Shown piece after piece: positions 529 through 24,199 of a DNA stretch of 25,562 nt. Positions within the stretch are counted from its first letter, which is position 1, and each line of letters opens with the position of its first letter. The translations under genes were made by a program, and so were the position numbers. This stretch comes from a virus (taxonomy: Duplodnaviria > Caudoviricetes), in the IMG/VR virus record IMGVR_UViG_3300036546_000385, positions 1 to 25,562 of that record. One strand, 5' to 3'. The notes below the pieces were generated by a model. The model was given only the letters and a program-made list of their open reading frames with translations, searched no databases and was not told where the DNA came from.

Positions 529-699
529 TATAGGGGGACAGCCTAGATGAGAAATGGCGTCGGGCCTAAACTTGATAGGACGAACACAGGGCTGGCATAG
601 GCCTGACCAGCCCCGGTTTTTTTGTATAGGGGGACAGCCGAGATGAGAAATGGCGTTGGGCCTAATATTGATAGGACAAACATAGGACCGGCATAGGCC
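529..699 (+). repeat. 75-bp imperfect direct repeat (529-603 and 625-699, period 96 bp) at the prophage left end
   Basis: TATAGGGGGACAGCC(T/G)AGATGAGAAATGGCG...GGCATAGGCC occurs twice; 8 mismatches in 75 nt by hand alignment. Confidence 0.95.
589..623 (+). terminator. Terminator-like hairpin closing repeat copy 1
   Basis: GGGCTGG-CATAGGCCTGA-CCAGCCC followed by CGG and T7. Confidence 0.55.
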
Positions 700-822
700 C
701 AAGTTAGGACTGGTGCGGACTTTCTGCGTTTTATGAAGCTGATGTTGCGTAAATTAAAGGGCGAAATCCAAAATGAGAAAAGCACACGGATTTCGCCCTT
801 TTTGCACTCTCGAAATGAGAAA
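626..822 (+). promoter_or_regulatory. Putative transposase binding sites L1-L3 (626-650, 756-780, 798-822; a further copy at 530-554)
   Basis: ATAGGGGGACAGCCGAGATGAGAAA, AAAGGGCGAAATCCAAAATGAGAAA and CTTTTTGCACTCTCGAAATGAGAAA, all in the same orientation. One site at the tip plus two about 130-170 bp inside resembles Mu attL geometry. Confidence 0.65.
756..803. terminator. 14-bp perfect inverted repeat, probable bidirectional terminator
   Basis: AAAGGGCGAAATCC (756-769) / GGATTTCGCCCTTT (788-801), T-rich on both exits; lies just downstream of the minus-strand gene 841-1332. Confidence 0.6.
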
Positions 823-840
823 GATGTCGGGGGGGCAAGG

Positions 841-1332
841 CTACTTGGGTGTTTTTTCCATTAGAATAAGACAGGCTGCTGCGGCTTCTGAGATATTCAT
901 ACTGTGGGTGTTCGGTTCGGAGAAGACATTGTCTAAACAATCGAGCAGTTCTTTTGATTCTTTGGCATCAATTTGGTGATTTGTGGCAGCAACAAAGTCA
1001 GCACACGTTGCGAGCTTATTCTGATAGGTTGCTGTAGCCCAAGCGGCTCCATTGTCTTTGTGAAGAGTCCCTCCCTCGTGCCATGCATTTGTATGGGGCG
1101 TTGGGGCGGTTTGCTGATCCTGCATTGAAGCGGGATTCGACGAATCCGTATGCTTATTCGCTGGAGTCGTCATGCTTGCTACGGCTACAAGCAGGAGGAA
1201 GCAGAGCGGATAGGCCTTAAGTACCTCTTTGCGAGATCTATTGCCCCACCACACGACGAGGCTTGGGCGTATCATGCCAATCACAAAGGCAAAAAGCGTT
1301 GCGGATGCCAGTAAGGATAGTAGGGTGGTCAT
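841..1332 (-). CDS. Membrane-anchored hypothetical protein (moron; possible superinfection exclusion)
   Basis: 163 aa with two N-terminal hydrophobic segments, a P/T/Q-rich linker and a Cys-containing soluble domain. AAGGGGA RBS upstream; separated from the repressor by a terminator. Confidence 0.7.
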   Translation of the reverse strand: MTTLLSLLASATLFAFVIGMIRPSLVVWWGNRSRKEVLKAYPLCFLLLVAVASMTTPANKHTDSSNPASMQDQQTAPTPHTNAWHEGGTLHKDNGAAWATATYQNKLATCADFVAATNHQIDAKESKELLDCLDNVFSEPNTHSMNISEAAAACLILMEKTPK

Positions 1333-1407
1333 AGCATTTCCCCTTTTGCTACAGTGTTGGTAATTATCTATTTGCTGTAATAATAACTAACATGCTATAG
1401 TGCGGTA

Positions 1408-1438
1408 TCAAAAAATAGCCTGTTGTAACAGGCTATTT
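1408..1438 (-). terminator. Intrinsic terminator of the repressor gene
   Basis: AAATAGCCTGTT-GT-AACAGGCTATTT inverted repeat; on the minus strand the stem runs into T6. Confidence 0.75.
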
Positions 1439-1467
1439 GAATAATTGAAGGATTTTTCCTTTCCCAA

Positions 1468-1932
1468 CTAAGCACTTCTGCGGGTGGCTTTAGTGGGGGC
1501 TGATGAAGCTTGCGCTTCCTCTCGCCCTTCAAGACGAGCAGCCCGCTCCCTAATTTCTGCGTTTTCCTTCCACAGTGTTCGGTTCTCGGCCACTAATTCC
1601 CGATTCTCTTCACGTTCTTTGCGTAGATCTTGACGCAATTCCGCAAGCTCTGTTTCTAGCCCGGCACAGCGAGGGCATGATTCGATATTGGTGTCTGCGG
1701 GCGTATGGTTGGATTTCGGGGATTGTTTGCTTTGCATTGGGCCATCGCCGACCAATAGCCAATCATAGGCAATCCCAAATTCTTTCGAGATAGAGACTAT
1801 CACATCGGCGTTAGGGATGCGTTCACCTCTCTCGTATCCGCCAAGGGTGTTCTGTGCGACCCCAATTGTCATGGCGAATTCTTTTTGCGGTATTCTGCCT
1901 CGAATTTGCTTTATTCTATCGCCAATGCTCAT
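1468..1932 (-). CDS. XRE/Cro-CI family HTH prophage repressor with C-terminal coiled coil
   Basis: IGDRIKQIRG..PQKEFAMTIGVAQNTLGGYERGERIP..YDWLLVGDG is a classic HTH_3 motif; gene is divergent from the early operon. Confidence 0.88.
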   Translation of the reverse strand: MSIGDRIKQIRGRIPQKEFAMTIGVAQNTLGGYERGERIPNADVIVSISKEFGIAYDWLLVGDGPMQSKQSPKSNHTPADTNIESCPRCAGLETELAELRQDLRKEREENRELVAENRTLWKENAEIRERAARLEGREEAQASSAPTKATRRSA

Positions 1933-2045
1933 GTGTTAAAGTTCCACGTCCAAAGTTAAACGATTGCCTTAACACGCCCTGTATTGCGTAACCATAAGCT
2001 TTCATTAGCGATATATGGATAACTCAAAAAGACGAACTTTAACTT

Positions 2046-2084
2046 AAAAACGCGTTGACTTGAACGCGTTTTTGCGTTTAAAAG
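2046..2084 (+). promoter_or_regulatory. Putative repressor operator overlapping the early promoter
   Basis: Perfect inverted repeat AAAAACGCGTT-GACTTG-AACGCGTTTTT (2046-2073) containing a TTGACT -35 (2055-2060); weak AT-rich -10 near 2078-2084. Confidence 0.6.
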
Positions 2085-2200
2085 TTGGTCGTGGGCGGTT
2101 GTAAAAAACACACATAATTTCAACAGCACTTTACAGCCGCACATCGAACTAGGTCAACGCCTCATTTCGGACGGCAAAGACCGCGACCTCGGACGGTAAG

Positions 2201-2650
2201 ATGAAGGCTGAACAACTCTCCCTGTTCCATAGCTCGGATGACGAGAAAGCAGCGGCTCTGCTTGCCGGAGTGCTGCCGCAGGTGCGAGCCGCCATGCATC
2301 GTGTGGCTGGAACGCAGCAAATTCTTTCGCGAGAGATGATTGCCGACAGGATGACAGAAGTATCCCGCTTTGCAGGTGTTCGGGTGAGTCCCGGAAATGC
2401 CAAGGGTATTACCCCGGCAATGTTGGAGAAATGGTTGAACCCTGTGGAGCGGGAGCATCCTCCCACCCTTTTAGCTGTTCTTACCTTCTGCATGGTCACC
2501 AAAGACCCAGCCCCATTACGGCCTCTCTTGGCTGCAATGGGGCTGGAATTAATGACGTCTGAGGACAAAGCATTGCGAGATTACGGCCGAGCTTGTGTTG
2601 AAGAGCGCAAGGCCCGGAAGAAAAAGAAGCAACTGGAGGCAGGGATTTGA
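2201..2650 (+). CDS. Early regulatory protein, phage CII-like
   Basis: First gene of the early operon; HTH-like segment SREMIADRM...ITPAMLEKWLNP; stop overlaps the next start. Confidence 0.6.
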   Translation: MKAEQLSLFHSSDDEKAAALLAGVLPQVRAAMHRVAGTQQILSREMIADRMTEVSRFAGVRVSPGNAKGITPAMLEKWLNPVEREHPPTLLAVLTFCMVTKDPAPLRPLLAAMGLELMTSEDKALRDYGRACVEERKARKKKKQLEAGI

Positions 2651-2892
2651 TGAATGTGAACGCTCATGCTGCGCGTGGTGCAGGACTTTTCCGTGACCCT
2701 TGGGGAATACGAAAGTTCCTTAGCTTGCGCGGGACCAATATGCGCCAGATCGCTCATGAGATGGGCAAGCATCCTCAGCAGGTTCAGGAAACCGTGCGCG
2801 GTATCAGGAACGACCGTGAGGTGTTGGCGAAGTTGCGCGATATGGGCTGCCCTGAAGAGTATCTTAGTCTCCCCAAAGATATGGTGGCGTAG
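2650..2892 (+). CDS. ner: Ner/Cro-like small HTH protein
   Basis: About 80 aa; IRKFLSLRGTNMRQIAHEMGKHPQQVQETVRG HTH; directly precedes the transposase, as ner does in Mu. ATG at 2650 is coupled to the upstream TGA. Confidence 0.65.
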   Translation: MNVNAHAARGAGLFRDPWGIRKFLSLRGTNMRQIAHEMGKHPQQVQETVRGIRNDREVLAKLRDMGCPEEYLSLPKDMVA

Positions 2893-2902
2893 GGAAATCA
2901 TC

Positions 2903-5029
2903 ATGGTTAAGGGCAAGGATTCATATACCGCGAAGGAACTAGCAACCGCACTAGGTGTGACGGTTATGACCGTCGCTCGCCGAGCTGAACGTGAGGGTTG
3001 GCAGTCCCGCCCTCGCGTCGGGCGCGGTGGGGGTAATGAGTGGCTGGTGAATTCCATGCCGGAGGCAACGCGCACGAAACTGCTTGCAGCCTGTGCGCAG
3101 GATCAGCTGGAAGCCACAGCCCACTCCATAAGGCCGTCTCTTGCCACAGCTGGCGTGAGTGAGTCGAAGAAGTCCAAGGCGTTGGCCCGTGCCGATCTGG
3201 TCGCGTTGTATACCGATTGGCTGGATAAATCGCCCTATGGTGAAAAGTTCGCTGCACGGGACAAGTTCATTCTTGCCTACTTGGGCGGTGCATGGCCTGC
3301 GCTGTTGAAAACACTTGGCGACAAGGTCAGCTGGAAGAGCATAGAGCGCTGGAAAATCCAGATTCAACGTGAAGGTTCGGTTGTCGCTTTGGTGGACCGT
3401 CGCGGCGGCGCAAATGCTGAACGCATTGCAATGACTGAATCCCATGCGGAGTTATTGCTTTCCGCAGTGCTGCGTCCGAATCATCCCTCCATCTCAGGTG
3501 CAATACGCATGGCGTCCGCAGCCATGAAGGCGCGGGGGCTGGAGGTTCCGGCAGAGCGCACGATGCGCCGTTTTCTTGATCAGTGGAAGGCTACGAACTT
3601 CGGAACGTGGATCTACACCCGCGAGGGCAAGAAGGCGTGGAATGACAAGGCAGCGTTCTTCATCGACCGCGATTACAAGCTTATCGAGGTGGGCGACATC
3701 CTCGTGGCAGACGGCCACGTCTTGAACTTTGAGACGCTGAATCCATGGACGGGCAAACCCCAACGTATGGAATTAGTGCTCTGGTACGACATGGCCTCCA
3801 ATTGTCCGGTGGGCTGGGAAGTAATGCCCACGGAGAACACGCAGGCTATTGCATCCGCTTTCCGGCGGGCCGTGCTTACTCTCGGCAAGTATCCTCTCAT
3901 CGCTTACTTAGACAACGGTAAGGCATTCCGCTCAAAGTATTTCAATGGGGTGGATTTCCGCCAGACCGGCATTGCCGGGCTGTTTCAGGAACTCAACGTC
4001 CACACCATTTTTGCATGGCCCTATCATGGGCAGTCCAAGACCGTGGAGCGCTTCTTCGGGACGCTGCATGATCTGGAGCAGTGGGTGCCGTCCTACGTGG
4101 GGCGCAACATCGAATCCAAGCCGCCGCGTTTGAATCGTGGGGAAGTGCTGCATCGCAAGGTTTGGGAGGCATCCGGTTGTCGGGCGCTGACCATGGAAGA
4201 GACACATGTGGCCGTGGCCCGGTGGGTTGATCAGTATATCAACCGGCCTCAGCGCGGCCACCTGAACGGCAGGTCTCCGGCAGAGGTCTTTATGGCTGGG
4301 CGCGGCCCCGGTGTGGATGAGACCAGGCTTCGCCATCTTATGATGGCCAAGGAAGTGCGTAAGCTTTCCCGCGAGGGCATCCGCATGTTCGGGGAACGCT
4401 ACTACGCGCCGGAGCTCTATAGCCGCACGCACGCCGTACAGGTTCGCTATGACATCGGCGACCTTTCCTCAGTGCTGGTCTACAGCGAAGATGGGCGGCA
4501 CCTCATCTGTGAGGCCCCCAAGGTTCGGGGCATCCATCCTGCCGCAGATTTGCTCGGCACCGAAGCGCATAGCGCTGATTTACGCCAAGCCATCGGCCTC
4601 AAACGGCAGCAGGAGCGTGAAGCTTCTGTCGTTGCAAGAGGGGTGCTCGAATCCGCGCTGTCAGATCAGCGGGAGCGTATGCGTGCCCTTCAGGCTGAAA
4701 GCGTGGAACCCAAGCCCGTATCTATAGCTCCGCTGCCTCAATCCAAGGTTACCAGTATTGAAGCTGCCAAGAGGCAGGCGCAGGCCAAGCGGGATGCTTC
4801 TCCTACCTATATTCCCCCGGCACAGAAGCCGGACATCGTGAACGAGCTCGACAAGTATGAATACCTTTTCAACTTGTCCGTTAAGGACGGCCTTGTCCTG
4901 CGTGAACCGGATCAGGAGTGGATGGAGAACCTTGAGCGCACGGAAGATTTCAAGCGGGATGCCGCTCATCGCTATGAACGGCTTCGTAAGTATTACGCCC
5001 GGAACCGGGTCAACACGGCAAACGCATAA
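2903..5029 (+). CDS. muA: MuA-like DDE transposase (708 aa)
   Basis: N-terminal Mu-type HTH (YTAKELATALGV..RRAEREGW..GRGGG); catalytic motifs LVADGH, YLDNGKAF, SKTVERFF; C-terminal VQVRYDIGDLSSVLVY. Start set at ATG 2903 after AGGGA. Confidence 0.95.
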   Translation: MVKGKDSYTAKELATALGVTVMTVARRAEREGWQSRPRVGRGGGNEWLVNSMPEATRTKLLAACAQDQLEATAHSIRPSLATAGVSESKKSKALARADLVALYTDWLDKSPYGEKFAARDKFILAYLGGAWPALLKTLGDKVSWKSIERWKIQIQREGSVVALVDRRGGANAERIAMTESHAELLLSAVLRPNHPSISGAIRMASAAMKARGLEVPAERTMRRFLDQWKATNFGTWIYTREGKKAWNDKAAFFIDRDYKLIEVGDILVADGHVLNFETLNPWTGKPQRMELVLWYDMASNCPVGWEVMPTENTQAIASAFRRAVLTLGKYPLIAYLDNGKAFRSKYFNGVDFRQTGIAGLFQELNVHTIFAWPYHGQSKTVERFFGTLHDLEQWVPSYVGRNIESKPPRLNRGEVLHRKVWEASGCRALTMEETHVAVARWVDQYINRPQRGHLNGRSPAEVFMAGRGPGVDETRLRHLMMAKEVRKLSREGIRMFGERYYAPELYSRTHAVQVRYDIGDLSSVLVYSEDGRHLICEAPKVRGIHPAADLLGTEAHSADLRQAIGLKRQQEREASVVARGVLESALSDQRERMRALQAESVEPKPVSIAPLPQSKVTSIEAAKRQAQAKRDASPTYIPPAQKPDIVNELDKYEYLFNLSVKDGLVLREPDQEWMENLERTEDFKRDAAHRYERLRKYYARNRVNTANA

Positions 5030-5038
5030 GGAGCAGGC

Positions 5039-5740
5039 ATGAGGCGTGATGTGTTCATAGAAACCCGTAACGTGATGGATTTTCGCCAGAAGGTGAGGGC
5101 CTTGGAAGATTACTCCGGCGAGCCGGGCTTTGCACTTGTCTTCGGGCAGGCCGGGCGTGGCAAGACCGAAACGGCCCGGAACTACCACGCCATTAACGGG
5201 GGTATTTTCCTCCGGGTCATGCAGGGCTGGTCGCAATGCTCTTTCCTGCAGGAGTTGTGTTTTCAAGTGTGTGGTGTGCGTCCCCGTTCTTCAGCGGCCT
5301 GCAAGGGGAAGATCATAGAGGCGCTTGATGCCATGCCGCAGACGCTGTTTGTCGATGAGGCAGACCGCCTGCATGTGGATCGCGTTGAGGATCTGCGGGA
5401 CATCTTCGACCTCACGAGCTCCCCCGTTGTGCTCATTGGAGAGCAGGAACTGCGTGGACTGCTCAGCACCCGTCGAAGAATCTGGAGCCGCGTGAAGCAG
5501 GTCGTGGAGTTTGGGCCGGTTGCTGAGGAAGACGTTGCTATATTGGGCGATGAGGCCGCAGGGCTGGATATAGCGCCGGAAGCCTGTTCACAGATTGTAC
5601 GGCTTGCTGACGGTGATTTTCGCCTTGTGTGGAGTTTCATCCGGCAGCTCGAACTGACGGCCAAGACGCATGAAACACAACGCATAGATTCGGCACTTGT
5701 GGCTCGTGTGGCCAAGCAAGTGGCCAACTGGAGGCAATAG
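5039..5740 (+). CDS. muB: MuB-like AAA+ transposition ATPase
   Basis: Walker A GQAGRGKT, Walker B LFVDEAD, VVLIGE, IWSRV; strong AAGGAG RBS; follows muA. Confidence 0.92.
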   Translation: MRRDVFIETRNVMDFRQKVRALEDYSGEPGFALVFGQAGRGKTETARNYHAINGGIFLRVMQGWSQCSFLQELCFQVCGVRPRSSAACKGKIIEALDAMPQTLFVDEADRLHVDRVEDLRDIFDLTSSPVVLIGEQELRGLLSTRRRIWSRVKQVVEFGPVAEEDVAILGDEAAGLDIAPEACSQIVRLADGDFRLVWSFIRQLELTAKTHETQRIDSALVARVAKQVANWRQ

Positions 5741-6354
5741 TGATCGGAGAGAAGATGGCTGGGCTGCGTGAGGCCGCCAGAAACCTCGGCAAGGGCGGGG
5801 CCGTGTTCTCCAACCGCATGCTGTATCAGGCGCTCGGCGGGGTGGATGAGCCGGCGAAGGATCGGATCAGGCGTCGTGCCGCGTCGCTTGTGACAACGGG
5901 AGAGTTCATCAGGGTCGGGCGTGGTGAGTACCGTTACAACCCCAAGGCTGCACCGGCCCGTAACGGCGAAATGATCACCCGCATGTGGCGAGCGCTTAAA
6001 TCGGCGAAACCCGGCTTCAGCGTGCAGGATTTGGCCAGGATATCCGGCGCGGGATACAGCAACACCCTTGGATACATCCGGTGCCTTGAAGAAGCGGGCT
6101 ATCTGCGCACCTGCGGCAGGAACGGAAACACCATTCTGTACCGTGCAACGGAAAAGGCCAGAAATCAGGTTCATGCGCATCAGCCCCCGCGACCGTTACG
6201 CGATCCCTTTGAAAACGAGAAAGAGAAGGTGCACGAGCTCGTCAGTTATTTCATGCTTCGTGACCTGTATCAGCCCGCTGTCCGCAAGTCCGTGGTGGCG
6301 TGCTGTAAAACCATACTGGACCGCTTTGAGCGACAGGAGGAATCCGATGAGTGA
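5740..6354 (+). CDS. Hypothetical DNA-binding protein (tandem winged-HTH-like)
   Basis: Two wHTH-like units (LVTTGEFIRVGRGEYRY; FSVQDLARISGA..YIRCLEEAGYL); coupled to muB. Start at GTG 5740 or ATG 5755. Confidence 0.7.
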   Translation: MIGEKMAGLREAARNLGKGGAVFSNRMLYQALGGVDEPAKDRIRRRAASLVTTGEFIRVGRGEYRYNPKAAPARNGEMITRMWRALKSAKPGFSVQDLARISGAGYSNTLGYIRCLEEAGYLRTCGRNGNTILYRATEKARNQVHAHQPPRPLRDPFENEKEKVHELVSYFMLRDLYQPAVRKSVVACCKTILDRFERQEESDE

Positions 6355-7156: not shown

Positions 7157-7181
7157 ATAAGCGGCCAATCGAAATGAGAAA
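7157..7181 (+). repeat. Internal copy of the end-type motif
   Basis: ATAAGCGGCCAATCGAAATGAGAAA; intergenic, overlapping the RBS region of the next gene. Confidence 0.75.
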
Positions 7182-8985: not shown

Positions 8986-9154
8986 GAATTTGAGATTTTT
9001 TGAAGTGCTGGGAGGGAGCTCTCAGTAATTGAACTTTTGACTGCGAAGAAACGATAATGTACGAGAATGAATTACGGATTGTCTTAGGGTGTTGTTATTT
9101 GTTTTTTTGTGTAAAATCTTTTTTTTCAATGTGTTATGTTGTCTAGGGGCAGGC

Positions 9155-10408
9155 GTGGTGGGCGAGAGTTTGACCGTATGTGAACACTGCTTGTCGCATC
9201 CTTCGCAACGAGCAATGCGCGACTATGTCATAAGTAATGGAACGATACAGAGGTGTTCAGAATGTGGCGTTTTTGCTTATTCTGTTCCTGTTGAATCGTT
9301 TTTTGACTACGTTAATGAATGTATTTCTCAATTATATCTTCCTACGGATGGTTTGGACCAGGTTGAGTTTCCTCCTGAGGATATTGAAAATAGTCATGTG
9401 TTGATTGATGTTTTTGATTGCTTGATGAGGTTTGAGGCTATTTCTAATCTTAAGGATGTGCATATTGAGTATATGTATAGACATGATTTTGGCATAGAGG
9501 AGAGGGTTAAGAAGAAAGATCTTTGTTTAAATAGAACTTCTTGGGATGAGTTTTGTGATGTTATAAAGCACGGAAGAAGGTTTTTCTTTTTTGATGAAGG
9601 TGTTGGAGAAAAAAGGCGTACACTTCTTTCTGATTTGTTTAAAATGCTTGAGGAAAATGGGAGGGTTGTTCATTTTAAAAGAGGTGGGACTGTGTATCGA
9701 GCTCGCCCTGTAAATGGAGGCGTGCTTTATTCTGCTCCTCGAGAGCTGGGTCCTCCACCTCCTGAGTGTGTTACACAGCAGAATAGAATGAGCCCCGCTG
9801 GGATAGCAATGTTCTATGGGGCAAATGATCCAACTACTGCCGTACTGGAGACAGCTTCAGGTGCTGTCAGAGAGCTTTTTTCTGTAGCGAGTTTTTATAT
9901 TAATCGCGATATGTTGTTGCTAGATATTTCAGATGAAATTTCAAGTCCAAATATTTTTGACAAGTATAAGTATGAATTTGTTAATAGTATTAACTTGTTT
10001 AATAGTATTAGGCTTATTTTTTCTGAGCCTGTAGATAGAGTTAATAATAAGCATAACATTGACTATGTTCCTACACAGATATTTACCGAGTATGCTAGGT
10101 GTCGCAAGTGTGGAGGGGCTGGTTGTGAATATAATATTGATGGAATAATATATAGAAGCAGTAAGACTAATGAAAAGTCATACGTTTTGTTTAAAACGTG
10201 CGATGATGTTTATGAGTTTTCAGATATGCCATGTGGGTATGTTGATGATAAGGAGTCTTTAATAGAATGCTTCATTATGTCTGAAGTTGCTTTGTATCTT
10301 TTGGAAAAAAATGATTCTGGTTCTACAGTTTTCCGCTATGCTGATTTTGAAATTGACCATATTGGCGGCAAGCATCAATGGACCATTAGGGTAAATAATG
10401 AGAAGTGA
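9155..10408 (+). CDS. RES-domain protein with N-terminal Cys (Zn) domain
   Basis: VYRAR, LGPPPP, NRMSPAGIAMFYGA..TAVLE, YVPTQIFTEY, DGIIYRSS; CEHC/CSEC at the N-terminus; AT-rich. Start placed at GTG 9155/9158 behind AGGGGCAGG. Confidence 0.85.
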   Translation: MVGESLTVCEHCLSHPSQRAMRDYVISNGTIQRCSECGVFAYSVPVESFFDYVNECISQLYLPTDGLDQVEFPPEDIENSHVLIDVFDCLMRFEAISNLKDVHIEYMYRHDFGIEERVKKKDLCLNRTSWDEFCDVIKHGRRFFFFDEGVGEKRRTLLSDLFKMLEENGRVVHFKRGGTVYRARPVNGGVLYSAPRELGPPPPECVTQQNRMSPAGIAMFYGANDPTTAVLETASGAVRELFSVASFYINRDMLLLDISDEISSPNIFDKYKYEFVNSINLFNSIRLIFSEPVDRVNNKHNIDYVPTQIFTEYARCRKCGGAGCEYNIDGIIYRSSKTNEKSYVLFKTCDDVYEFSDMPCGYVDDKESLIECFIMSEVALYLLEKNDSGSTVFRYADFEIDHIGGKHQWTIRVNNEK

Positions 10409-11384
10409 TCTTGTAATTAAATTGATTCGTGCAGCAGCAGCCGGAAATAGGGCGGAGCTTGAGCGAGTTTCGCTAGAGGCTGCATCAGAAGAACGAAAGA
10501 AAGGGCACGGCGTTTTAGCCGATAGGATGGAACGTGCTTTTAAGAATACGCCGCCCCCGCGAGTTAACGGTGTGGCATCTCCTGTAGCACCTGCTGTGAT
10601 ACATGCTGCACGCCCGGCAATCGTTGAGAAAAAGCCGGTTGTTAATTTGAATTCCCTTTTGCTGCCTGCCTCCGTTGTGATGCAAGTTAAAAACTTGGTC
10701 GAGGAGCAGGTGCGGGCTGGAGTTCTTTTGCAGCGGAATATTGAGCCTAGGCACAGGGTCTTGCTGGCGGGGCCTCCTGGAAACGGAAAAACCTCGCTTG
10801 CTGAGGCGATTGCAAATGAGTTGGATGTACCTCTTTGGATAGTGCGATACGAGTCTTTGATAGGGAGTTATCTTGGCGAAACGGCTGCCCGATTAAAAAG
10901 TGTAATTGATTATGCAAAAACAACTCATTGTGTGTTGTTTTTTGATGAATTTGACGCTATCGCGAAAGAGCGTGGAGATAAGCATGAGACTGGTGAGATT
11001 AAGCGGGTGGTTAATTCGCTATTGATGCAAGTTGATGATTTGCCATACTATACTGTTGTCATTGCTGCTTCAAACCACCCTGAGTTGCTTGATCGTGCTG
11101 TGTGGAGGCGATTCCAGATGAAGATGGAGTTGCCAAATCCATCTAGAGATCTTCTTGAGAATTTTATAGAACGACAGCTTTCTGAGCTTGGTGAGCTTGG
11201 ATATCAATGTTCAACGATAGCAAAAAAGTTGTATCCAACAAATTTTGCTGAAGCAGAGCAGTTTTGTTTAACAATTAAACGCCGCTATTATCTTGCTCAT
11301 GAGCTGGGTGATTTAAAGAAAATTATTCAACAAGAGATGCAATACTGGGGAGTGCAGTACTCTCCAAAAGATGTTGAGGCTTAA
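10398..11384 (+). CDS. AAA+ ATPase, IetA-like
   Basis: GPPGNGKT, SLIGSYLGETA, LFFDEFD, GEIKRVVNSLL, ASNHPELLDRAVWRRF; overlaps the RES gene by 11 nt. Confidence 0.92.
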   Translation: MRSDLVIKLIRAAAAGNRAELERVSLEAASEERKKGHGVLADRMERAFKNTPPPRVNGVASPVAPAVIHAARPAIVEKKPVVNLNSLLLPASVVMQVKNLVEEQVRAGVLLQRNIEPRHRVLLAGPPGNGKTSLAEAIANELDVPLWIVRYESLIGSYLGETAARLKSVIDYAKTTHCVLFFDEFDAIAKERGDKHETGEIKRVVNSLLMQVDDLPYYTVVIAASNHPELLDRAVWRRFQMKMELPNPSRDLLENFIERQLSELGELGYQCSTIAKKLYPTNFAEAEQFCLTIKRRYYLAHELGDLKKIIQQEMQYWGVQYSPKDVEA

Positions 11385-11386
11385 AT

Positions 11387-13990
11387 ATGTCAGAAATGCG
11401 TGAGCAGCGGCGAAAGCCCTTACTTCTTTTTCCACAGCCTACGATTATACCTCCTCAGAAAGGGAAGCCTATGTTTGTTCCTACTCTTCTTGTTCAGGGG
11501 AGTAGGAAGAATAGGCAAGCTGTTGGAAAGAGGACTCATGGCGTTTGGGATTCTCTGGAAAAGAATCTCATGGCATCGCCAGCAGTCTTACAAGAAGATG
11601 CAAGTAGTGTTGCTCCAGGACGAACGATTGTTTTTGAGGTTTTAACTTCTTTAACAGACTTTTATCGTGCTGCGGTTAAAGTTAAAGGGTTAGAATTTTT
11701 GGCTGAATATGAAGATGTTGATAATCCAATATCGCCTGATGAGATTGATGGTTGGGGGTATGAGCTTGACCCCAATTTCCTTGATGAGAAAAGGAGGTTG
11801 AAGAAGTCTGTTACCCCCTTTTTTTACTTGGCGATGCCAGACAAAAATGCATTGTCTGAAGTGTTAAGTTTATGGAAAGAATTTCAAGAAACAGGGACAA
11901 TTAAACGGTACGGATTGGCAGCATGGAAGAGTTTGTTTGAGAACTTAAAAGATGTTCGTCCCTGGGGGCCTCGTGATCGCGTACTCGCTTCATTTAAAGA
12001 GGTGTTAAGTAGGGCTGAAGAGGCTGGGGATGCTGTGACTCTTTTTCAGCTTGATATGTGGTGGAGCGCATCGCCAGCGAAGCGCGGAGAAATCCTAACC
12101 CATGTTTCAAGTGTTGTTGTTGATAATGGCGGTCAGGTTTTACACTGCTCTGAGATCGTTGATATCAAGTGGCACGGAATGCTTGTTGAAATGCCGACTT
12201 CTACTTTGTCTGGCATGGCTTCTGATGTGGAGAATCATCCCAGCGGGCTAGCTTTAGTTGACGATATACAGTTTATGTCATCATGCGTAAGAGGGATGGC
12301 CCCTGATATTGAGTTGGATAATGTGGTTTCTGTGGATGGGGCTGTTGGTGAAAGCGTGCAATATGGTGGAGATATCTGCGCGGTGTTGCTTGATTCTCGC
12401 CCACTCGTGGAGCATCAGGCTCTGGTGGGGCGTTTGGACGTTGCTAGCTCCCTGGGGGGGGATGAAACTCCGGGAAGCCATGGTACTCAGATGGCTTCGA
12501 TTATAATACATGGTGATCGGGCAAAGCCTGATCTCGACACGTTGGATATAAAACTTGGTTGTTTCCCTTTGCTTGAAGCTAATGACCGTACTCCGTCAAA
12601 CGTTTTGCTATTGGATCTATTTTATAAGGCGATAGTTTCTATATGTGAAGATGACGGAACTGGGCAGCCTTTGTATCCTTCTGCACGAATTTTTAATCTC
12701 TCAGTTGGCGATCCTGGACGTCCATTTGATGGGGGGAGGATTAGTTCTTGGGCTCGCCTTATTGATCATCTTTCTTGGAAATATAAAATATTATTTATTA
12801 TAAGCGCTGGAAATAGGCTTGGTGGGAATAAGTATATTCCAACAAATTACGAAAAATTTTCAGATTTTGATGATGATTCTACAAAGAATAGAGATTTGTT
12901 TGAAAATAATATTGTTAATGATTTGATTTGTGATGATGATAATAATTTGCTTTCTCCCGCCGAGTGTATCAATGGGATAACTGTTGGTGCAGCTCATTTG
13001 GATGGGGATTGTATAAATAATAGCAGGAGTTGTACTGAGTCTTGGAAGAATAATGCTGGATTGCCTGCTCTAACATCAAGAATTGGTTTTGGGTATAAGA
13101 AAACGATCAAGCCGGATTTAATTGCTCCAACAGGATTTGAGTATATAAGATGGATTAATGCTTCATATGGTGCAGCCATTCGACAGAGTCCTTGTGGTGG
13201 AATACAGCGAGCCATGTTGGGGGGGGAAGGAGAAGTAACTAAGTGGGGAAATGAGTTCTCTACAAGTGCTGCCACGGCTTTGGCTTCGCATGGGACAATT
13301 AAGATATATCAAATGTTGAATGATTTTGTACCAGAATTGCCAGAAGATCAAAAGGTTGTTTTGTTAAAAGCACTTGTCGGTCATGCTTGTCAATGGCCAG
13401 ATTCGGCACAGCTATTATTAAGCAAATTCAAATCTGAACGTTATCCAGCTAGACCTGATAGCGTTGCTAGATATTTAGGGTATGGAATTCCTAATTTTGA
13501 AAGAGTATTGTGGTGCGTTGATAATCAAGTAACATTGATTGGCTCGGGATATCTTGAAGCAGATGGAAAAACGCAGCATGAGTTTAGTTTTTCTTTGCCA
13601 GCTATTGCTGGAAGTAATCTGGAAGGTGTTGAGCTTCTCGTTAGTGTGGCATATTTTAGCCCAGTCAATCACGGAATTAATAGATATCAAGATGTACGAT
13701 TTTCAATAAAAACTGATCAGCCTTTTGATGAATTAAAGAGAATGTCTTCATCTATGCCGAGTCATTACGCATGTTCTCGCGGAACAATACATAATTATTC
13801 TTTGTATGCATCGGAATTGGCGGTTGGTGTTGATTCTATGTTTAGATTTTTTGTAAATTGCAAAGGGTATAATATTGATAAGACTGATGTAGTTCCATAC
13901 GGAATAGCTGTTTCTCTAAAAACAAAAACAGAGGTTGATATTTATACTGCTGTTGAGCAGAGATTGAAAGTGCACCCAGTTTATGCTTAG
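11387..13990 (+). CDS. S8 subtilisin-like serine protease, IetS-like (867 aa)
   Basis: Triad motifs VLLDS, SHGTQMAS and STSAATA; oxyanion ISAGN; also FNLSVG, IKPDL, LGYGIP. Starts 2 nt after the ATPase stop; no signal peptide. Confidence 0.88.
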   Translation: MSEMREQRRKPLLLFPQPTIIPPQKGKPMFVPTLLVQGSRKNRQAVGKRTHGVWDSLEKNLMASPAVLQEDASSVAPGRTIVFEVLTSLTDFYRAAVKVKGLEFLAEYEDVDNPISPDEIDGWGYELDPNFLDEKRRLKKSVTPFFYLAMPDKNALSEVLSLWKEFQETGTIKRYGLAAWKSLFENLKDVRPWGPRDRVLASFKEVLSRAEEAGDAVTLFQLDMWWSASPAKRGEILTHVSSVVVDNGGQVLHCSEIVDIKWHGMLVEMPTSTLSGMASDVENHPSGLALVDDIQFMSSCVRGMAPDIELDNVVSVDGAVGESVQYGGDICAVLLDSRPLVEHQALVGRLDVASSLGGDETPGSHGTQMASIIIHGDRAKPDLDTLDIKLGCFPLLEANDRTPSNVLLLDLFYKAIVSICEDDGTGQPLYPSARIFNLSVGDPGRPFDGGRISSWARLIDHLSWKYKILFIISAGNRLGGNKYIPTNYEKFSDFDDDSTKNRDLFENNIVNDLICDDDNNLLSPAECINGITVGAAHLDGDCINNSRSCTESWKNNAGLPALTSRIGFGYKKTIKPDLIAPTGFEYIRWINASYGAAIRQSPCGGIQRAMLGGEGEVTKWGNEFSTSAATALASHGTIKIYQMLNDFVPELPEDQKVVLLKALVGHACQWPDSAQLLLSKFKSERYPARPDSVARYLGYGIPNFERVLWCVDNQVTLIGSGYLEADGKTQHEFSFSLPAIAGSNLEGVELLVSVAYFSPVNHGINRYQDVRFSIKTDQPFDELKRMSSSMPSHYACSRGTIHNYSLYASELAVGVDSMFRFFVNCKGYNIDKTDVVPYGIAVSLKTKTEVDIYTAVEQRLKVHPVYA

Positions 13991-15828: not shown

Positions 15829-16425
15829 ATGGCTATCATTCAGCGCGGGCGTGAACATCAGCCGGAAACAGTCTGGAAGGCGCAGGAACTCTACTGCGTG
15901 GCTCGGTTGTCCTTTCGGGAGGTCGCCAAAGAAGCCGGTGTCGCCGAGTCTACGCTCAAGCGGTGGTCCGAGAAGTACGGCTGGCGTGAAAAACGGGACC
16001 GCATCGCGCAGGCCGAGGCGGAACTTCGTGCGGACACCATTATGGCCCGGTCGGTCATGCTCAAGAAGCTTATAGACTCTAAAGACGCTCAGACCGGCTT
16101 TGCGGTGGCCTCGCTGGAAAGTCTGGCCATGCGGCAGGCCGAGGCAGAACGCGCTGGCAGGGCTCTGGAAGCTGCCACCCGAAATGAGAAACGCTCCATC
16201 CGCACCGCCGAGGACGCCGTCAAAGCACTGCGCGAGGGCATTGAAGCCAAGCTGGCCATGCTGCTGGCCGCGCCGGAGGATATCGACTTCAAGGCCGTGG
16301 CTGACGTTCAGAAAGCACTGAAACTGGTGGGAGAGATGGAAGCGGCCGCAAAACCCGCAGAGGATACCACCAAGACCAAGGGGCTCTCCGCTGATCTGGA
16401 AGCCCGCATCCGCGAGATACTGTAA
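15829..16425 (+). CDS. Putative terminase small subunit
   Basis: N-terminal HTH (LSFREVAKEAGVAESTLKRWSEKYGW); directly abuts TerL. Confidence 0.7.
   Translation: MAIIQRGREHQPETVWKAQELYCVARLSFREVAKEAGVAESTLKRWSEKYGWREKRDRIAQAEAELRADTIMARSVMLKKLIDSKDAQTGFAVASLESLAMRQAEAERAGRALEAATRNEKRSIRTAEDAVKALREGIEAKLAMLLAAPEDIDFKAVADVQKALKLVGEMEAAAKPAEDTTKTKGLSADLEARIREIL
16167..16191 (+). repeat. Internal copy of the end-type motif (within terS)
   Basis: GGAAGCTGCCACCCGAAATGAGAAA; 23/25 identical to 19270-19294. Confidence 0.8.
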
Positions 16426-17908: not shown

Positions 17909-19480
17909 ATGAATACTCCTGTACTGTATCGACCCGATGGGACCGTGATTGATTTTTCCAACGCCGCCGATCGCGCTGCACTGGGAGAGCAACTCGCCAC
18001 ACGCCGCAATGCCCTCGGTGGTTTCGATCTCGGCGCGGCATTAGGCTGGCTGCCGGACCCTGATCCGGTGCTCCGTAAGCGCGGGGACAGCGTCCACGTG
18101 CTGGAAGACCTGATGGCCGATGATGAGGTCACACAGGCTATTCAGTCCCGCAAGCTCAAGACCTTGAACCGCCGTGAGTACCGCTTTTCTCCGGGGGCCG
18201 CCAAAGGAGAGGAGCCCACTGCACAGGCCGAACGACTGTGTGACGATCTTGTCCGGGACTTTGAGCAACTGGACATGGACGTGCTGATCAGTGGCATCCT
18301 CGATGCGCCGTACTTCGGCATGACGCCCGTAGAACTTGTATTCGTCCCGGATGGTGGACGGCTTCGCCTGGTCGCAGCTGACCCCAAACCGGTAGAGTGG
18401 TTTGCCTTCGATGATGACAACCGGCTCATGTTCCGGGGCGAGTTCTTCGGGCAGGCCCAGCCGGTGCACCCGTACAAGTTTGTGCTGGCCCGCCATTTTC
18501 CCACCTACAAGAACCCGTATGGCCTGCGTCTCCTGTCCCGTTGCCTCTGGCCCGTGGCGTTCAAACGTGGAGGCATCGAATTCTGGTGCCGGTTCACTGA
18601 GAAATACGGGCAGCCGTGGATGCTCGGCACGGCCCGCGCCAGTGCCACACAGCCGGAAATCAACCGTATGGCCGCCGACCTTGCCGCCATGGTGCAGGAC
18701 GCTGTTGCCGTCGTGCCGAACGGGGCCAAGGTGGAGGCCGTGGAGTTCTCTGCCAAGGGTGGCTCCCAACACCTTGAGTTCATCACCCACTGGGACAAGT
18801 CCATCAACAAGGTGATCAAGGGGCAGACCCTTACCAGCGATGTGGGGGATGGCCATTCCAACGCGGCCACGCAGACCCATTACCAGTTGCTCGGTGACTA
18901 CTCGGAGGCGGATGCCCGGCTTGTGGAAACCGCCATGAACAACATCGCGTGGGCCTACACGCAGGTCAACGCATCGGCAGAGTTCGCACCTCTCTTCGGG
19001 TACGTCGAACCAGAGGACTATGCCGCGCAGGCAGAATTAGACACCAAGCTGAAGAACCTCGGTGTGCGGTTCAAGAAAACCTATTTCGTGAGGACCTATG
19101 ATCTCACGGAAGATGAGTTCGAGCTGGATGGCGAAACTGAAGATGCGCCGGATCACGAAGACCGCAACGTCACTGCAGCCGGGGACAAGGACTTCGCTGA
19201 GCACGATGCGGCAGGCAATCCGGACGCGCACCAGCAAGCGCTGGATGCCTTTGTGGAAGCAAGTCTGCCGGAAGCTGCCAAGCGAAATGAGAAATTCATG
19301 GCTGAGGTCAAAGCCGTGCTGCAGGCCGCCGAATCGTGGGAGGACTTGCAGCTCATGCTGGCGGGGCAGCTTGGCAAGTCCATGGACGAGGATGAGCAAG
19401 CCGCTTTCATGGGCGACGTGTTGACCAATGCGGACCTCTTCGGCCGTTACGCCATGCAGAGCAAGTCCGATGACCGTTGA
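17909..19480 (+). CDS. Portal protein (Mu gp29 / DUF935)
   Basis: ILDAPYFG..PVEL, NPYGLRLLSRCLWPVAFK..W..FTEKYGQP, I.KVIKGQTLTS. Confidence 0.92.
   Translation: MNTPVLYRPDGTVIDFSNAADRAALGEQLATRRNALGGFDLGAALGWLPDPDPVLRKRGDSVHVLEDLMADDEVTQAIQSRKLKTLNRREYRFSPGAAKGEEPTAQAERLCDDLVRDFEQLDMDVLISGILDAPYFGMTPVELVFVPDGGRLRLVAADPKPVEWFAFDDDNRLMFRGEFFGQAQPVHPYKFVLARHFPTYKNPYGLRLLSRCLWPVAFKRGGIEFWCRFTEKYGQPWMLGTARASATQPEINRMAADLAAMVQDAVAVVPNGAKVEAVEFSAKGGSQHLEFITHWDKSINKVIKGQTLTSDVGDGHSNAATQTHYQLLGDYSEADARLVETAMNNIAWAYTQVNASAEFAPLFGYVEPEDYAAQAELDTKLKNLGVRFKKTYFVRTYDLTEDEFELDGETEDAPDHEDRNVTAAGDKDFAEHDAAGNPDAHQQALDAFVEASLPEAAKRNEKFMAEVKAVLQAAESWEDLQLMLAGQLGKSMDEDEQAAFMGDVLTNADLFGRYAMQSKSDDR
19270..19294 (+). 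repeat. Internal copy of the end-type motif (within portal)
   Basis: GGAAGCTGCCAAGCGAAATGAGAAA. Confidence 0.8.
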
Positions 19481-20850: not shown

Positions 20851-20879
20851 AGAATACGCCCGCCATTCCGGCGAGTCAA
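20851..20879 (-). promoter_or_regulatory. Sigma70-type promoter, antisense to the late operon
   Basis: Minus strand reads TTGACT-N17-TATTCT. Confidence 0.75.
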
Positions 20880-20901
20880 CCAATCCTCAAGGAGAAGCGC
20901 C

Positions 20902-21795
20902 ATGAAATGGACCAAGATAGGCCGCACCGGCCTGCATACCGCCATGTCCGGCCAACAGGTGCAACTGACGGAGGCAGACTTTGACAAAGTCGTGGCCACC
21001 TACAACCCCAAGGACCATGAAGCCCCGCTGGTGTTGGGCCATCCTGTGAATAACGGCCCGGCTTTCGGGTGGGTGGATAGTCTCAAACGTGAAGGCGAAT
21101 ATTTATTGGCACAGTTTGCCCAGGTTCCCGACAGCCTGAAGAAAGCCGTGGATAATGGCCACTATAAGAAGGTCAGCATGAGTCTCTACCCGGATGGAAC
21201 CCTCCGGCATGTCGGCCTGCTCGGAGCGACCCCGCCTGCCATCAAAGGCTTGGGTGATATTAACCTCGGCTCCGGGGAAGACACCACGGAGATTCACTTC
21301 GACTTTTCGGAGACGCCGGGTCAACCGGCACCAAACCAGCCGGATATCCCCGGCACGGAGAACACAATGGGCGACAAGGAACTCATTGAAAAACTGAAGG
21401 CGGACAACGCCCGGCTGGAAAAGGAAAAGGCCGATGCCGACAAGTCCGCAGCTGATGCCAACAAGGCCAAGGAAGCGGCAGAAAAGAGCTTTGCCGAGGC
21501 ACAGGCCGCGAAGGCCAAGGAAGCCCGCACCGCCAAGGTTGATGCCCTGATCAAGGATGGCAAAGTGCTGCCCGCAGAAAAAGACCGCATTCTCGCGTTT
21601 GCGGAGCGCCTCGGTGGCAAGCCCGGCGATGAAATCTGCTTCAGCGAGGGCGAAGGAAAGAAGGCCGTTGAAGATCATTTCTTCAACTGGCTTGAAGGGC
21701 GTCAGGCTCACGGGCTGTTCGATTTCTCTTCGCCCGATCAGAAGCCCGGCGGTGAAGAATCCATTAACACCAGCGGCCTTGCCGCCAAGTTTTAA
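20902..21795 (+). CDS. Mu gpI-like head maturation protease / scaffold
   Basis: EAPLVLGHP..PAFGWV..L, YKKVSMS, LRHVGLLGATPPAIKGL; coiled-coil C-terminus; AAGGAG RBS before ATG 20902. Confidence 0.88.
   Translation: MKWTKIGRTGLHTAMSGQQVQLTEADFDKVVATYNPKDHEAPLVLGHPVNNGPAFGWVDSLKREGEYLLAQFAQVPDSLKKAVDNGHYKKVSMSLYPDGTLRHVGLLGATPPAIKGLGDINLGSGEDTTEIHFDFSETPGQPAPNQPDIPGTENTMGDKELIEKLKADNARLEKEKADADKSAADANKAKEAAEKSFAEAQAAKAKEARTAKVDALIKDGKVLPAEKDRILAFAERLGGKPGDEICFSEGEGKKAVEDHFFNWLEGRQAHGLFDFSSPDQKPGGEESINTSGLAAKF
21367..21795 (+). CDS. In-frame nested scaffold protein (Mu gpZ-like)
   Basis: GGAG RBS then ATG 21367 (MGDKELIEKLK...) after a Pro-rich linker; same arrangement as Mu I/Z. Confidence 0.5.
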   Translation: MGDKELIEKLKADNARLEKEKADADKSAADANKAKEAAEKSFAEAQAAKAKEARTAKVDALIKDGKVLPAEKDRILAFAERLGGKPGDEICFSEGEGKKAVEDHFFNWLEGRQAHGLFDFSSPDQKPGGEESINTSGLAAKF

Positions 21796-21806
21796 GGGGA
21801 AGAAGG

Positions 21807-22154
21807 ATGGTACATGACGCTGTTGTCCGCGTCCGCCATACGGTCACCAGTGTGACCACCGGGGCTGGCCCGCACATAGAACGCGAATATCCCAAGAAGG
21901 CCGATGCCGTTATCCCTATGGGTGCTGTGGTGGCTCTGGATGCCGGGGAGGCCGTTGTCTACGATCCGGCAGGAGCTCTGCCCATCAAGGGCGTGGCTAC
22001 TCTTAACGCCAATGCCGATGAACCCGGCATCTCCCTGTGTGTGCTGGGCCGTGTCCGCGCTGATCTGCTGACCGTGTCCGGCGGCGCTGCACCGGATGCC
22101 GCAACCCTCGCCAAACTCGAAGAGCGTCACATCTACGCAGAGGAGAGTGTGTAG
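21807..22154 (+). CDS. Head decoration protein
   Basis: 115 aa between scaffold and capsid; IPMGAVVA...GVA...G.VRADLL pattern. Confidence 0.65.
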   Translation: MVHDAVVRVRHTVTSVTTGAGPHIEREYPKKADAVIPMGAVVALDAGEAVVYDPAGALPIKGVATLNANADEPGISLCVLGRVRADLLTVSGGAAPDAATLAKLEERHIYAEESV

Positions 22155-22157
22155 TCC

Positions 22158-23147
22158 ATGTTTGATCTGAAGCCGTATTTTACCGCAGCTCGTATCGCCA
22201 AACGGTTCGAGGTCGCTCCGCCTCTGGCCACTACGGTCATGGACCTGTTGTTCCCGGCGGACGTGCGGGCGAACTATGAATCCCCCGTCATTCCTGTCTC
22301 CGACATCAAGCAGGTTGTAGGTGCCGTACCGGTTGTGCGCCGTGGCAGTGCGTCCATTCCCCTGCGTGGCGAAGATACTGAAACCTCCTATATCGAACCC
22401 TTGCCGGTGCGTATCCATGACGAACTGAGCGCCGTGGATCTTAACAACCTCAAGATCGCCAGCCCCACCACGCTGGAGCAGTGGTCCAATCGCAAGCAGC
22501 TGGCTCTGCGAAGGGCGGCCCGCCTCACGTCGGAAGTTCTCTGCGCTCAGGCCGCATTCGATGGTCGGATTGCTTATCCTCTGTTGCAGTCCAACGGCTC
22601 TTTCACCACGTATCAGGTGGATTACGGGGCTCCGCTCGATCATGCCTTGGCAGCTGCCGAGAAATGGGACCATGCCGATGCCAGTCTCATGATTGTGTAC
22701 GGATTGTTGGAAGATATGGCCACGGACCTCGACAAGGCAGGGTATGGCGGTTCCAAGATCACGTTTGCCGGGAGACTGGCTTTCTCCACGGTGCTCAAGC
22801 TCATCGAGGCCACCGACAAACCCAAGATTCCCGTCCTGGTGGAAAAGGACGGCTCCATCTCGCTTGGTGGTCACACCATCCGCAAGATGGCCGAAACCTA
22901 CTATGACCCGTCCACCAAGACCACCAAGCCCAAGCTGGCCGACAAGGAAGTCCGCATGATTGCCACCGGCAATACGGCCTTCTTCTATGGCCCTGTGGAC
23001 GATCTGGACGCTAACCTGCACGCCATGCCCATGTTCATCAAGCCCATCAAGCGGGACAACCCTTCCGGCATCCTGCTGGTCGGTGAGTCCAAGCCCCTGC
23101 CTGCTGTCGCCCCCAAGGCCACCGTCAAGGCCACCGTCCTCGCCTAA
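22158..23147 (+). CDS. Major capsid protein (lambda gpE-like type)
   Basis: 329 aa; PVVRRG, EVLCAQA..G, YQVDYG, ESKPLP; position in the head module. Confidence 0.82.
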   Translation: MFDLKPYFTAARIAKRFEVAPPLATTVMDLLFPADVRANYESPVIPVSDIKQVVGAVPVVRRGSASIPLRGEDTETSYIEPLPVRIHDELSAVDLNNLKIASPTTLEQWSNRKQLALRRAARLTSEVLCAQAAFDGRIAYPLLQSNGSFTTYQVDYGAPLDHALAAAEKWDHADASLMIVYGLLEDMATDLDKAGYGGSKITFAGRLAFSTVLKLIEATDKPKIPVLVEKDGSISLGGHTIRKMAETYYDPSTKTTKPKLADKEVRMIATGNTAFFYGPVDDLDANLHAMPMFIKPIKRDNPSGILLVGESKPLPAVAPKATVKATVLA

Positions 23148-23169
23148 TCCCCCTCTGTGCGAAGACCGC

Positions 23170-23198
23170 TCCAGAGGGCCTGAACAAGGCCCTCTGGA
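23170..23198 (+). other. 12-bp perfect hairpin after the capsid gene
   Basis: TCCAGAGGGCCT-GAACA-AGGCCCTCTGGA; no T tract. Confidence 0.7.
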
Positions 23199-23260
23199 TG
23201 TCGGGCCGAGTCGAACCTGTAACACTAGTTCAAAACTAGTCCAAAACGCCCGGAACAAGC

Positions 23261-23692
23261 ATGTACTGCGAACGAACCGACCTGCACGACTACATTCCTG
23301 CCGCGTATCTGGATGCGGCAGACAAGGTAACGCCCGGCATCGTGGGTCGAAAGATAGCCAGCGTGTGTGGTGCCGTCGACGATGCCCTTCGCCGTCATTA
23401 CGTGCTGCCGCTCGTCACAGTGCCTGAAACCATCAAGCGCATGTCGGCTGTCATGGCGGCGTATGAAGCCATCGGCGGCATAACGGCTGTGAAGGACGAC
23501 ACCAACGCTGGCAACAAGCTGCTGGTGCTGCAGGATCTCTATAAGCAGGCCCGCAAGGACTTGGCTCTGATCCGGGATAACAAGCTGGAACTGGGATTGG
23601 ATGAGCTGGGGCTGGAACCTTCTGAAGGCGCGGACGGGACCATGGCTGTGGTGACACGCCCGGCAACACTGAACCTCAAGGGGTGGCGCTGA
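23261..23692 (+). CDS. Mu gp36-like (DUF1320) head-tail adaptor
   Basis: MYC...DL, VDDALRRHYVLPL..VP, YKQARKDL..IRD.KL.LG. Confidence 0.82.
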   Translation: MYCERTDLHDYIPAAYLDAADKVTPGIVGRKIASVCGAVDDALRRHYVLPLVTVPETIKRMSAVMAAYEAIGGITAVKDDTNAGNKLLVLQDLYKQARKDLALIRDNKLELGLDELGLEPSEGADGTMAVVTRPATLNLKGWR

Positions 23693-24183
23693 TGGCTGGT
23701 GCATCCTTCTCCATGCCCATGGACGGCCTGATGCGGGCCGTGGATGCGGGCATATCGCATGCCCAGCGCACCCAGCAGCTGGCCGAGGCTATCGGCGAGG
23801 CGCTCGTTTCCAGTACGCAACAACGTTTTGAAGACCAGGAGCGCCCGGACGGTTCCAAATGGGAACCATCACTCCGGGCCAAGAACGAAGGCGGCGTTAC
23901 CCTGACGGACAAGGGGACTCTCAAAAAATCCATAGGGTACGCTGCCAGCCCGGCTAAGGTCACGGTCGGCACCAGCATGAAATATGCGGCCATTCATCAA
24001 CGCGGGGGAACCATCAGGGGCAAGAAGGGCAAGCTTAAGTTTCCGTTGCCGGGGGGTGGTTTCGCCCAGGTTGATCAGGTGGCCGTACCGGAGCGCTCCT
24101 ATCTCGGTCTGTCCGAGGAAGACGTCAAGGAAGTGCGGGAGATGATGGTGCAGCACATGCGTCAAGCCCTGCTGGGTGGATGA
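23692..24183 (+). CDS. Virion morphogenesis protein (Mu gpG / P2 gpS family)
   Basis: TQQRFE.Q..PDG.KW.P, LTDKGTLKKSI, VGT..KYAAIHQ.GG, VPERSYLGLS.ED; TGATG coupling at 23690-23694. Confidence 0.88.
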   Translation: MAGASFSMPMDGLMRAVDAGISHAQRTQQLAEAIGEALVSSTQQRFEDQERPDGSKWEPSLRAKNEGGVTLTDKGTLKKSIGYAASPAKVTVGTSMKYAAIHQRGGTIRGKKGKLKFPLPGGGFAQVDQVAVPERSYLGLSEEDVKEVREMMVQHMRQALLGG

Positions 24184-24199
24184 CAACCAATATGAGAAA
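24175..24199 (+). repeat. Degenerate internal copy of the end-type motif
   Basis: GGTGGATGACAACCAATATGAGAAA versus the terminal site ATAGGGGGACAGCCGAGATGAGAAA. Confidence 0.5.

Follow-up and report, generated by a model that had tools for sequence, protein, structure and literature searches.

End-type transposase sites dispersed through the interior of Mu-like prophages as a candidate device of self-immunity

The ends of the transposable phage Mu are inverted arrays of transposase sites (attL with L1-L3, attR with R1-R3), in which R1 and R2 lie 22 bp apart and L3 ∼150 bp in, and integration duplicates 5 bp of the target. In Mu (MuA/MuB) and Tn7 (TnsB/TnsC), transposase bound to its sites clears an AAA+ targeting partner from nearby DNA (cis target immunity; PMC7350765, PMC2837660, PMC9308760). 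In Mu this effect is strong over ∼5 kb and fades out to 25 kb. The immunity conferred by the Mu ends is reported to be too short for 37 kb (PMC7350765), and TnsB sites in target DNA are reported to mediate Tn7 immunity (PMC9308760). Shielding of the ∼37-kb replicating genome from self-insertion has been treated as “Mu genome immunity” (Ge, Lou, Harshey 2010; Walker and Harshey 2020); it goes with strong interior MuB binding and a separate domain, and most of it is described as unexplained (PMC7350765). Here we analyze IMG/VR virus record IMGVR_UViG_3300036546_000385, the entire 25.6-kb viral record (25,562 nucleotides, hereafter the window), which consists of a host gene followed by the left two-thirds of a Mu-like prophage, the right end lying outside the window. 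The prophage genes run in the order repressor, transposase A, short B ATPase, gam, gemA, 5-kb cargo, and lysis and head genes, and close relatives were found in Desulfovibrionaceae. Like Mu and Tn7, the prophage has both a transposase and an AAA+ partner. In the available accounts of those systems the sites stand at the element ends only, whereas in the family of the window single sites of the end type run through the coding sequence, and these sites probably contribute to self-immunity.

The end sites were defined from relatives. Fifty-two regions around relatives were assembled, of which 26 gave a left-right end pair, 24 of these with a perfect (5/5) target duplication; all counts refer to these 24 complete relatives, the other regions (fragments or more distant phages) being left out. 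Ends were proposed with the motif itself, and the 5-bp target duplication served as the independent check. Both ends of the phage family carry the 18-bp motif G(A/T)CA-NN-C(A/G)A-NN-TGAGAA(A/T), which differs in sequence from the Mu sites. It lies 8 bp inside each terminus in 24/24 relatives (L1 and R1) and is inverted at the right end, in agreement with a sequence-only reading of the window that had called the motif an end-type site. R2 follows at +22 from R1 in all 24, the Mu spacing, and L2 and L3 are clear in most, with 94 of 120 end sites passing 14 bits; the same end-finding procedure applied to Mu recovers the same R1-R2 and L3 offsets. Given the terminal positions, the Mu-like offsets, and the MuA-type DNA-binding and C-terminal domains of the transposase (PF02316, PF09039 and PF09299, all above cut-off), we infer that the motif is the transposase end site. 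A PDB sequence search with the transposase gave only a weak match, to the MuA N-terminal domain (E 0.027).

Two features set these ends apart from those of Mu. An inverted R3 was found in only three of the 24 relatives, and the terminal 5'-TG...CA-3' rule is broken, the right end being CA in 24/24 and the left end TA in 16/24 and in the window. The left terminus has switched between TA and TG at least four times on the transposase tree, and TA-ended copies have perfect target duplications. For the left end of the window, run X4 contains a copy identical from 625 to 4873 with a different flank. In genome bin G031, at least four left and three right ends occur at contig breaks (contigs C13, C14, C19, C39, C40, C18 and C32); an interpretation of the multiple left ends as mini-elements was rejected, as ends at contig breaks fit a multi-copy prophage in one genome bin.

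Within the window, the 12-mer CGAAATGAGAAA is exact at 811, 7170, 16180 and 19283, and when up to two mismatches are allowed it has eight matches, all on the plus strand, compared with a mean of 2.4 and a maximum of 6 in shuffled sequence. The word ATGAGAAA occurs nine times on the plus strand and never on the minus strand. Scoring with the end-site matrix gave a clean break, with eight sites at 18.4 bits or more, the interior ones on a par with those of the ends, and the next best at 10.5. The terS and portal 25-mers are identical at 23 of 25 positions, and the codons CGA AAT GAG AAA have a probability of 0.0027 given RNEK under window codon usage. The exact 12-mer positions and the 23/25 match are as given in the sequence-only reading. 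The related copies it listed near 530, 626, 756 and 24175 also score well (21–24 bits); the one near 530 lies outside the prophage, which begins at 625, in a host scar. Its inverted copy was rejected (Table 1), and scores on the minus strand of the window go no higher than 11.3 bits.

The interiors of the relatives were scanned at a cut-off of at least 16 bits unless 14 is stated, with leave-one-phage-out matrices for which only the end sites of the remaining phages were used. The prophages, 906 kb in all, contained 65 matches, whereas the 443 kb of flanking host DNA contained 2, a 16-fold enrichment, and the reversed matrix gave 4. The seeding of the interior with end-type sites, including inside genes, which had been claimed for the window, extends to most of the family: at least one interior site is present in 22 of the 24 phages, with up to five each at 16 bits. 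G037 and G035 have none with the family matrix. In the 3.59-Mb chromosome of H. aestuarii, all 11 copies of CRAAATGAGAAA lie in its two prophages, eight of them interior, and host DNA contains 0 copies versus 3 for the reversed control. Five further genomes contain 29 consensus matches, 24 in mapped prophage (14 of these interior), 4 as end-like pairs elsewhere and 1 alone, and the window's host species has two matches in 4.1 Mb, one of which is the scar. The motif is rare in host DNA, but these counts show a lack of enrichment there and not the depletion that had been predicted. Unlike the window family, Mu has no interior end-type sites (top interior score 12.8, control 13.0; P 0.33), nor has 3927AP2 by score. 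Interior sites were likewise not significant by score in RR1-B, MP22 and Spike, and were borderline in Ab30; for RhkS_P1 the ends were not located.

The interior sites are selected as DNA. Synonymous resampling of the window genes produced a mean of 0.032 in-gene matches against the 3 observed, a number reached in 0 of 1000 rounds, which upholds the proposal that conservation acts at the DNA level. The residues NEK are retained at the site column in only 8 of 36 portals. Among relatives, interior sites fall at four portal columns and also in tnpA, terS, terL, F and tail genes, with an inverted one after a 115-aa gene; therefore their presence seems to matter more than their exact place. The terS site is absent in G001 although its terS is 92% identical. 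Sites have been gained and lost repeatedly, at different places. They are closer to the ends of their own phage than to those of others (label permutation p<1/20000; GC-binned 1e-4), and the end variant TGGGAA of G066 recurs in two of its three top interior sites. Where a true end would terminate, TG/TA is found in only 6 of 80 interior sites, as would be expected of sites that are bound but not cleaved.

Spacing of the sites is irregular, about 7 kb, and not periodic. Gaps in the window are 6.4, 9.0, 3.1 and 4.9 kb, and relatives with at least three sites have a median gap of 6.8–7.5 kb, with only 13–15% of gaps between 3 and 5 kb. The regular 3–5 kb spacing suggested earlier is not seen, and the subtraction of the cargo used to obtain it was unjustified, because relatives hold 4.7–5.9 kb of other cargo in the same slot. 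A symmetric zipper arrangement of the sites was considered and not seen among the 24 relatives. The array is not essential in every member, because some phages have 0–1 interior sites and gaps of 10 kb and more.

We consider it likely, at a probability of roughly 0.6, that the interior single sites bind transposase uncut and keep the B ATPase, and with it new insertions, off nearby DNA. By analogy with Mu and Tn7 biochemistry, transposase A would bind single interior end-type sites without cutting them, and the bound enzyme would clear B from several kb on each side, as in Mu/Tn7 cis target immunity. With less B locally, fewer new insertions would occur near each site, the array would produce overlapping protected zones, and a genome of 35–45 kb, beyond the reach of end sites alone, could be shielded during replicative transposition.

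This self-immunity reading is independently supported by the self-insertion map of Ab30, which, with MP22 and Spike, belongs to the D3112 group (Casadabanvirus) and likewise has a short B followed by a helix-turn-helix (HTH) gene. Vergnaud et al. (PMC5977238) report that 0.4% of Ab30 insertions lie in Ab30 itself, as nine domains that they explain by supercoil loops. Summing their rounded domain sizes places the inner boundaries at 3800, 9900, 15200, 22400, 26900 and 30700. A matrix built from the four end sites of Ab30, without use of the boundaries, gave interior matches at 3846, 9900, 15324, 22410, 27083 and 30792, such that all six boundaries are matched within 200 bp. With a 12-column core matrix the six boundary matches are among the top 10 of Ab30; with the 20-column matrix chosen first, matches within 150 bp of the boundaries rank 6, 25, 16, 3, 41 and 9. 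The 20-column fit was equalled by 0/1500 random boundary sets, and by 0/400 column-permuted matrices at 150 bp and 1/400 at 250 bp. AT content is not high at the boundaries. Across five domains with a stated density (D1, D3, D4 and D9 excluded), larger domains had denser insertions (rho 0.9). All six sites are retained in MP22, at 31–32 of 32 bases; in Spike, a site lies at 27223, within a tape-measure stretch that cannot be aligned with Ab30. Weaker end-like matches in Ab30 (∼935 and 18768 in the trimmed coordinates of L239; ranks 11 and 15) coincide with the D1/D2 boundary and with the central gap free of insertions, which the authors assigned to a gyrase site (PMC5977238). The agreement with the Ab30 map is one of position. 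The periodicity and the copies at 530 and 2158 of the sequence-only reading are not supported.

Several observations weigh against this interpretation. By score alone, the interior matches did not clearly stand out from permuted matrices in Ab30 (P 0.09), MP22 (0.41) or Spike (0.09), and core matrices gave P 0.025–0.04 for Ab30 and 0.56–0.62 for Spike; the D3112-group sites are weak in this respect because the end motif of the group, unlike that of the window family, is degenerate. The narrower Ab30 matrices were picked after the matches had been seen, the boundaries are rounded, and the distinction between kilobase-scale valleys and small footprints was taken from the text of PMC5977238. The Ab30 transposase family is only ∼27% identical to the window transposase. 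For Mu, B is reported to cover the interior, and genome immunity for the most part not to depend on B (PMC2837660, PMC7350765). Among the relatives, at 14 bits two of the 24 phages have no site and three have one, and the median largest gap at that cut-off is 14.3 kb. Evenness of spacing is mild (mean p 0.26; Fisher 0.008, the phages not being independent), and a phylogenetically independent test of co-variation between interior and end variants yielded only four pairs and had no power. Several conserved sites overlap gene starts, which would also fit regulation. The strongest contrary observation is that the prophage in the window inserted ∼70 bp from the lone L1-type site of the host scar, a single event that opposes strong protection by a single site. 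This insertion may have been an initial integration, into a cell where no transposase was bound, or may reflect the preference for nearby DNA reported when B is absent (PMC3894238).

An alternative, which we regard as unlikely though worth weighing, is that transposase bound at the interior sites anchors loops that fold the prophage and help the ends meet across 35–45 kb in place of the central strong gyrase site (SGS) of Mu, the self-insertion gaps being a by-product of occlusion. In the interpretation of Vergnaud et al., four loops cross at fixed points, which are the Ab30 boundaries; successive Ab30 sites face in alternate directions, and one of the most widely retained sites of the window family lies right after gene G, the location of the gyrase cut site of Mu; few other gyrase sites are reported to substitute for the SGS (PMC10052514). 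Anchors of this kind are harder to reconcile with sites that are not symmetric about the center, that vary freely in number and place among relatives, and that in the window, G041a and G041b all share one orientation, including those 2 kb from the right end.

It is less probable still that interior-bound transposase controls gene expression at the level of transcription or translation, for instance by forming a roadblock that would delay middle and late genes until replication titrates the enzyme. Sites at recurring positions overlap the starts or ribosome-binding regions of genes (the gene after G, gemA and open reading frame (ORF) 7187, with the inverted site after the 115-aa gene), and 58 of 80 sites are oriented with the main direction of transcription. 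However, gene starts are simply permissive for the motif, because it contains ATG; many sites occupy shifting positions deep within terS, terL, tnpA, portal or tail genes, the terS site is lost in G001, whose terS is 92% identical, and the Ab30 insertion gaps would be left unexplained. Neither loop anchoring nor regulation is exclusive with immunity.

The Mu repressor also binds end sites, and another phage protein (the repressor, the HTH gene product beside B or that of the HTH_17 gene) could in principle use end and interior copies as operators, as the sequence-only reading had itself proposed as an alternative. G001 has a site inside its ner-like gene, but that site is absent from the window. 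The motif is not a palindrome, and its copies occupy terminal offsets with the same 22-bp R1-R2 period as Mu transposase sites; it is constant while the detected repressors of relatives are mostly 30–45% identical (63% in G001) and while the immunity region is swapped in run X1. The interval between the repressor and ner/cII (1900–2250) contains a palindrome of its own and no copy of the motif. We consider an operator role highly improbable. The sites also differ from the Mu enhancer (internal activation sequence, IAS) with operators O1-O3. Both would be internal DNA bound by transposase, but the enhancer forms a single cluster, located between repressor and ner, and its consensus does not resemble the ends, whereas the motif described here is the end motif itself, is scattered and is absent from that interval of the window. 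We give next to no credence to interior copies being chance words, protein-driven (NEK, MRN starts) or neutral relics, for although ATGAGAAA makes an easy gene start and all interior copies of the window are on the coding strand, the enrichment over flanks, the gap in scores, the synonymous resampling and the lack of conserved residues all argue otherwise.

Table 1. Positions in the window of the end-type sites and of the genes and elements discussed with them.
Feature	Coordinates	Strand	Remarks
Left-end site L1	625..650	+	18-bp core at 633-650; prophage starts 5'-TA at 625
Left-end site L2	755..780	+	Core 763-780; +130 from end; about +107 to +131 in most relatives
Left-end site L3	797..822	+	Core 805-822; +172 from end; about +149 to +176 in relatives
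Interior end-type site	7164..7181	+	Just upstream of ORF 7187; 19-20 bits; retained in G001/G002
Interior end-type site in terS, in frame (ATRNEK)	16174..16191	+	Same position in G041a; lost in close relative G001
Interior end-type site in portal gene, in frame (AKRNEK)	19277..19294	+	Relatives have portal sites at four different alignment columns
Interior end-type site at junction of gene G and next gene (called K by position)	24182..24199	+	Among the most widely retained interior positions
Inverted copy of the sequence-only reading	2158..2182	-	Rejected; 3 bits
Orphan 75-bp left-end scar with L1-type site (537-554)	529..603	+	Host chromosome, outside this prophage
Mu-type transposase A, 708 aa	2903..5029	+	HTH_Tnp_Mu_1, HTH_Tnp_Mu_2, Mu-transpos_C; probable binder of the sites
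Short B-type AAA+ ATPase, 233 aa	5039..5740	+	AAA_22 from residue 28; phrog_296; D3112-group type
HTH protein gene adjoining B	5740..6354	+	Arrangement as in D3112-group phages
XRE/cI-type repressor	1468..1932	-	Variable among relatives, motif constant
Palindrome between repressor and cII-like gene	2038..2081	.	Candidate operator; unrelated to end motif

The stretch 529-603 is a scar left in the host by the end of an earlier phage: G207, a genome of the host species, and host contigs of 4/4 sequencing runs contain it without the prophage, and the sister genome G333 lacks it. Orphan left-end scars in host chromosomes are seen at window 529-603 and at L238:1500-1690, and the present prophage lies 96 bp from the start of one of them. 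With respect to insertion sites more generally, 16 of the 24 complete prophages lie less than 500 bp from a tRNA gene, mostly at 78–174 bp (a raw count), and the empty site of the window (624/625; L244) is ∼100 bp from a tRNA-like sequence. These positions may point to tRNA-guided target choice in this Mu-like family, for which a limited literature search gave no clear report.

Other features of the prophage concern its variable regions and the genes next to B. The HTH gene follows the short B directly in RR1-B and RhkS_P1 as well as in the D3112 group, and its product is a candidate target-selection partner. The immunity region (window 822-2091) is replaced by unrelated DNA in the otherwise near-identical phage of run X1. 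A 14-bp inverted repeat at 757-800 overlaps L2 and lies between L2 and L3, and paired changes preserve the repeat in G001. The swappable cargo slot (9089-13990, after the HTH_17 gene) encodes a RES-domain protein, an AAA ATPase and an S8 protease, which we presume to resemble AAA-protease defence pairs. Portal searches of viral and metagenome contigs recovered only four close loci. In G023 (L031, 7425-8944) a truncated transposase is followed directly by the portal gene, the result of a large internal deletion.

A broader proposal, which we hold tentatively and at slightly less than even odds, is that the array represents a third route to self-immunity, in which dispersed transposase sites in coding sequence have repeatedly re-evolved in short-B phages, from Desulfovibrionaceae to the Pseudomonas D3112 group, and replace the B-coat and gyrase-domain solution of Mu, the “four supercoil loops” of Ab30 then being a map of the array. 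The B protein of the window lacks the ∼70-residue N-terminal appendage that has been proposed to aid occlusion (PMC3894238). A link between short B and the array is not established, because RR1-B has a short B without a clear array. In the parts available, the published account of the D3112 group describes end sites only (PMC4378225), as does a further published description (PMC2628397), and a paper on Desulfovibrio piger prophages makes no mention of binding sites (PMC12724379). A literature search that left subscription journals largely uncovered turned up no description of interior transposase sites serving for immunity. The array would apply an established biochemical principle across a whole genome, in a manner not described before, and entails a reinterpretation of the published Ab30 data.

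The match to Ab30 makes the self-immunity idea testable in cultivable Pseudomonas phages with existing reads and, if the idea is true, long cargoes of Mu- or Tn7-type delivery systems could be protected with single transposase sites. For the phages themselves, the interior sites reveal DNA-level selection hidden in structural genes, and they would offer a concrete, recodable cause for the ability of a 37-kb phage to multiply a hundredfold by transposition without inserting into its own DNA.

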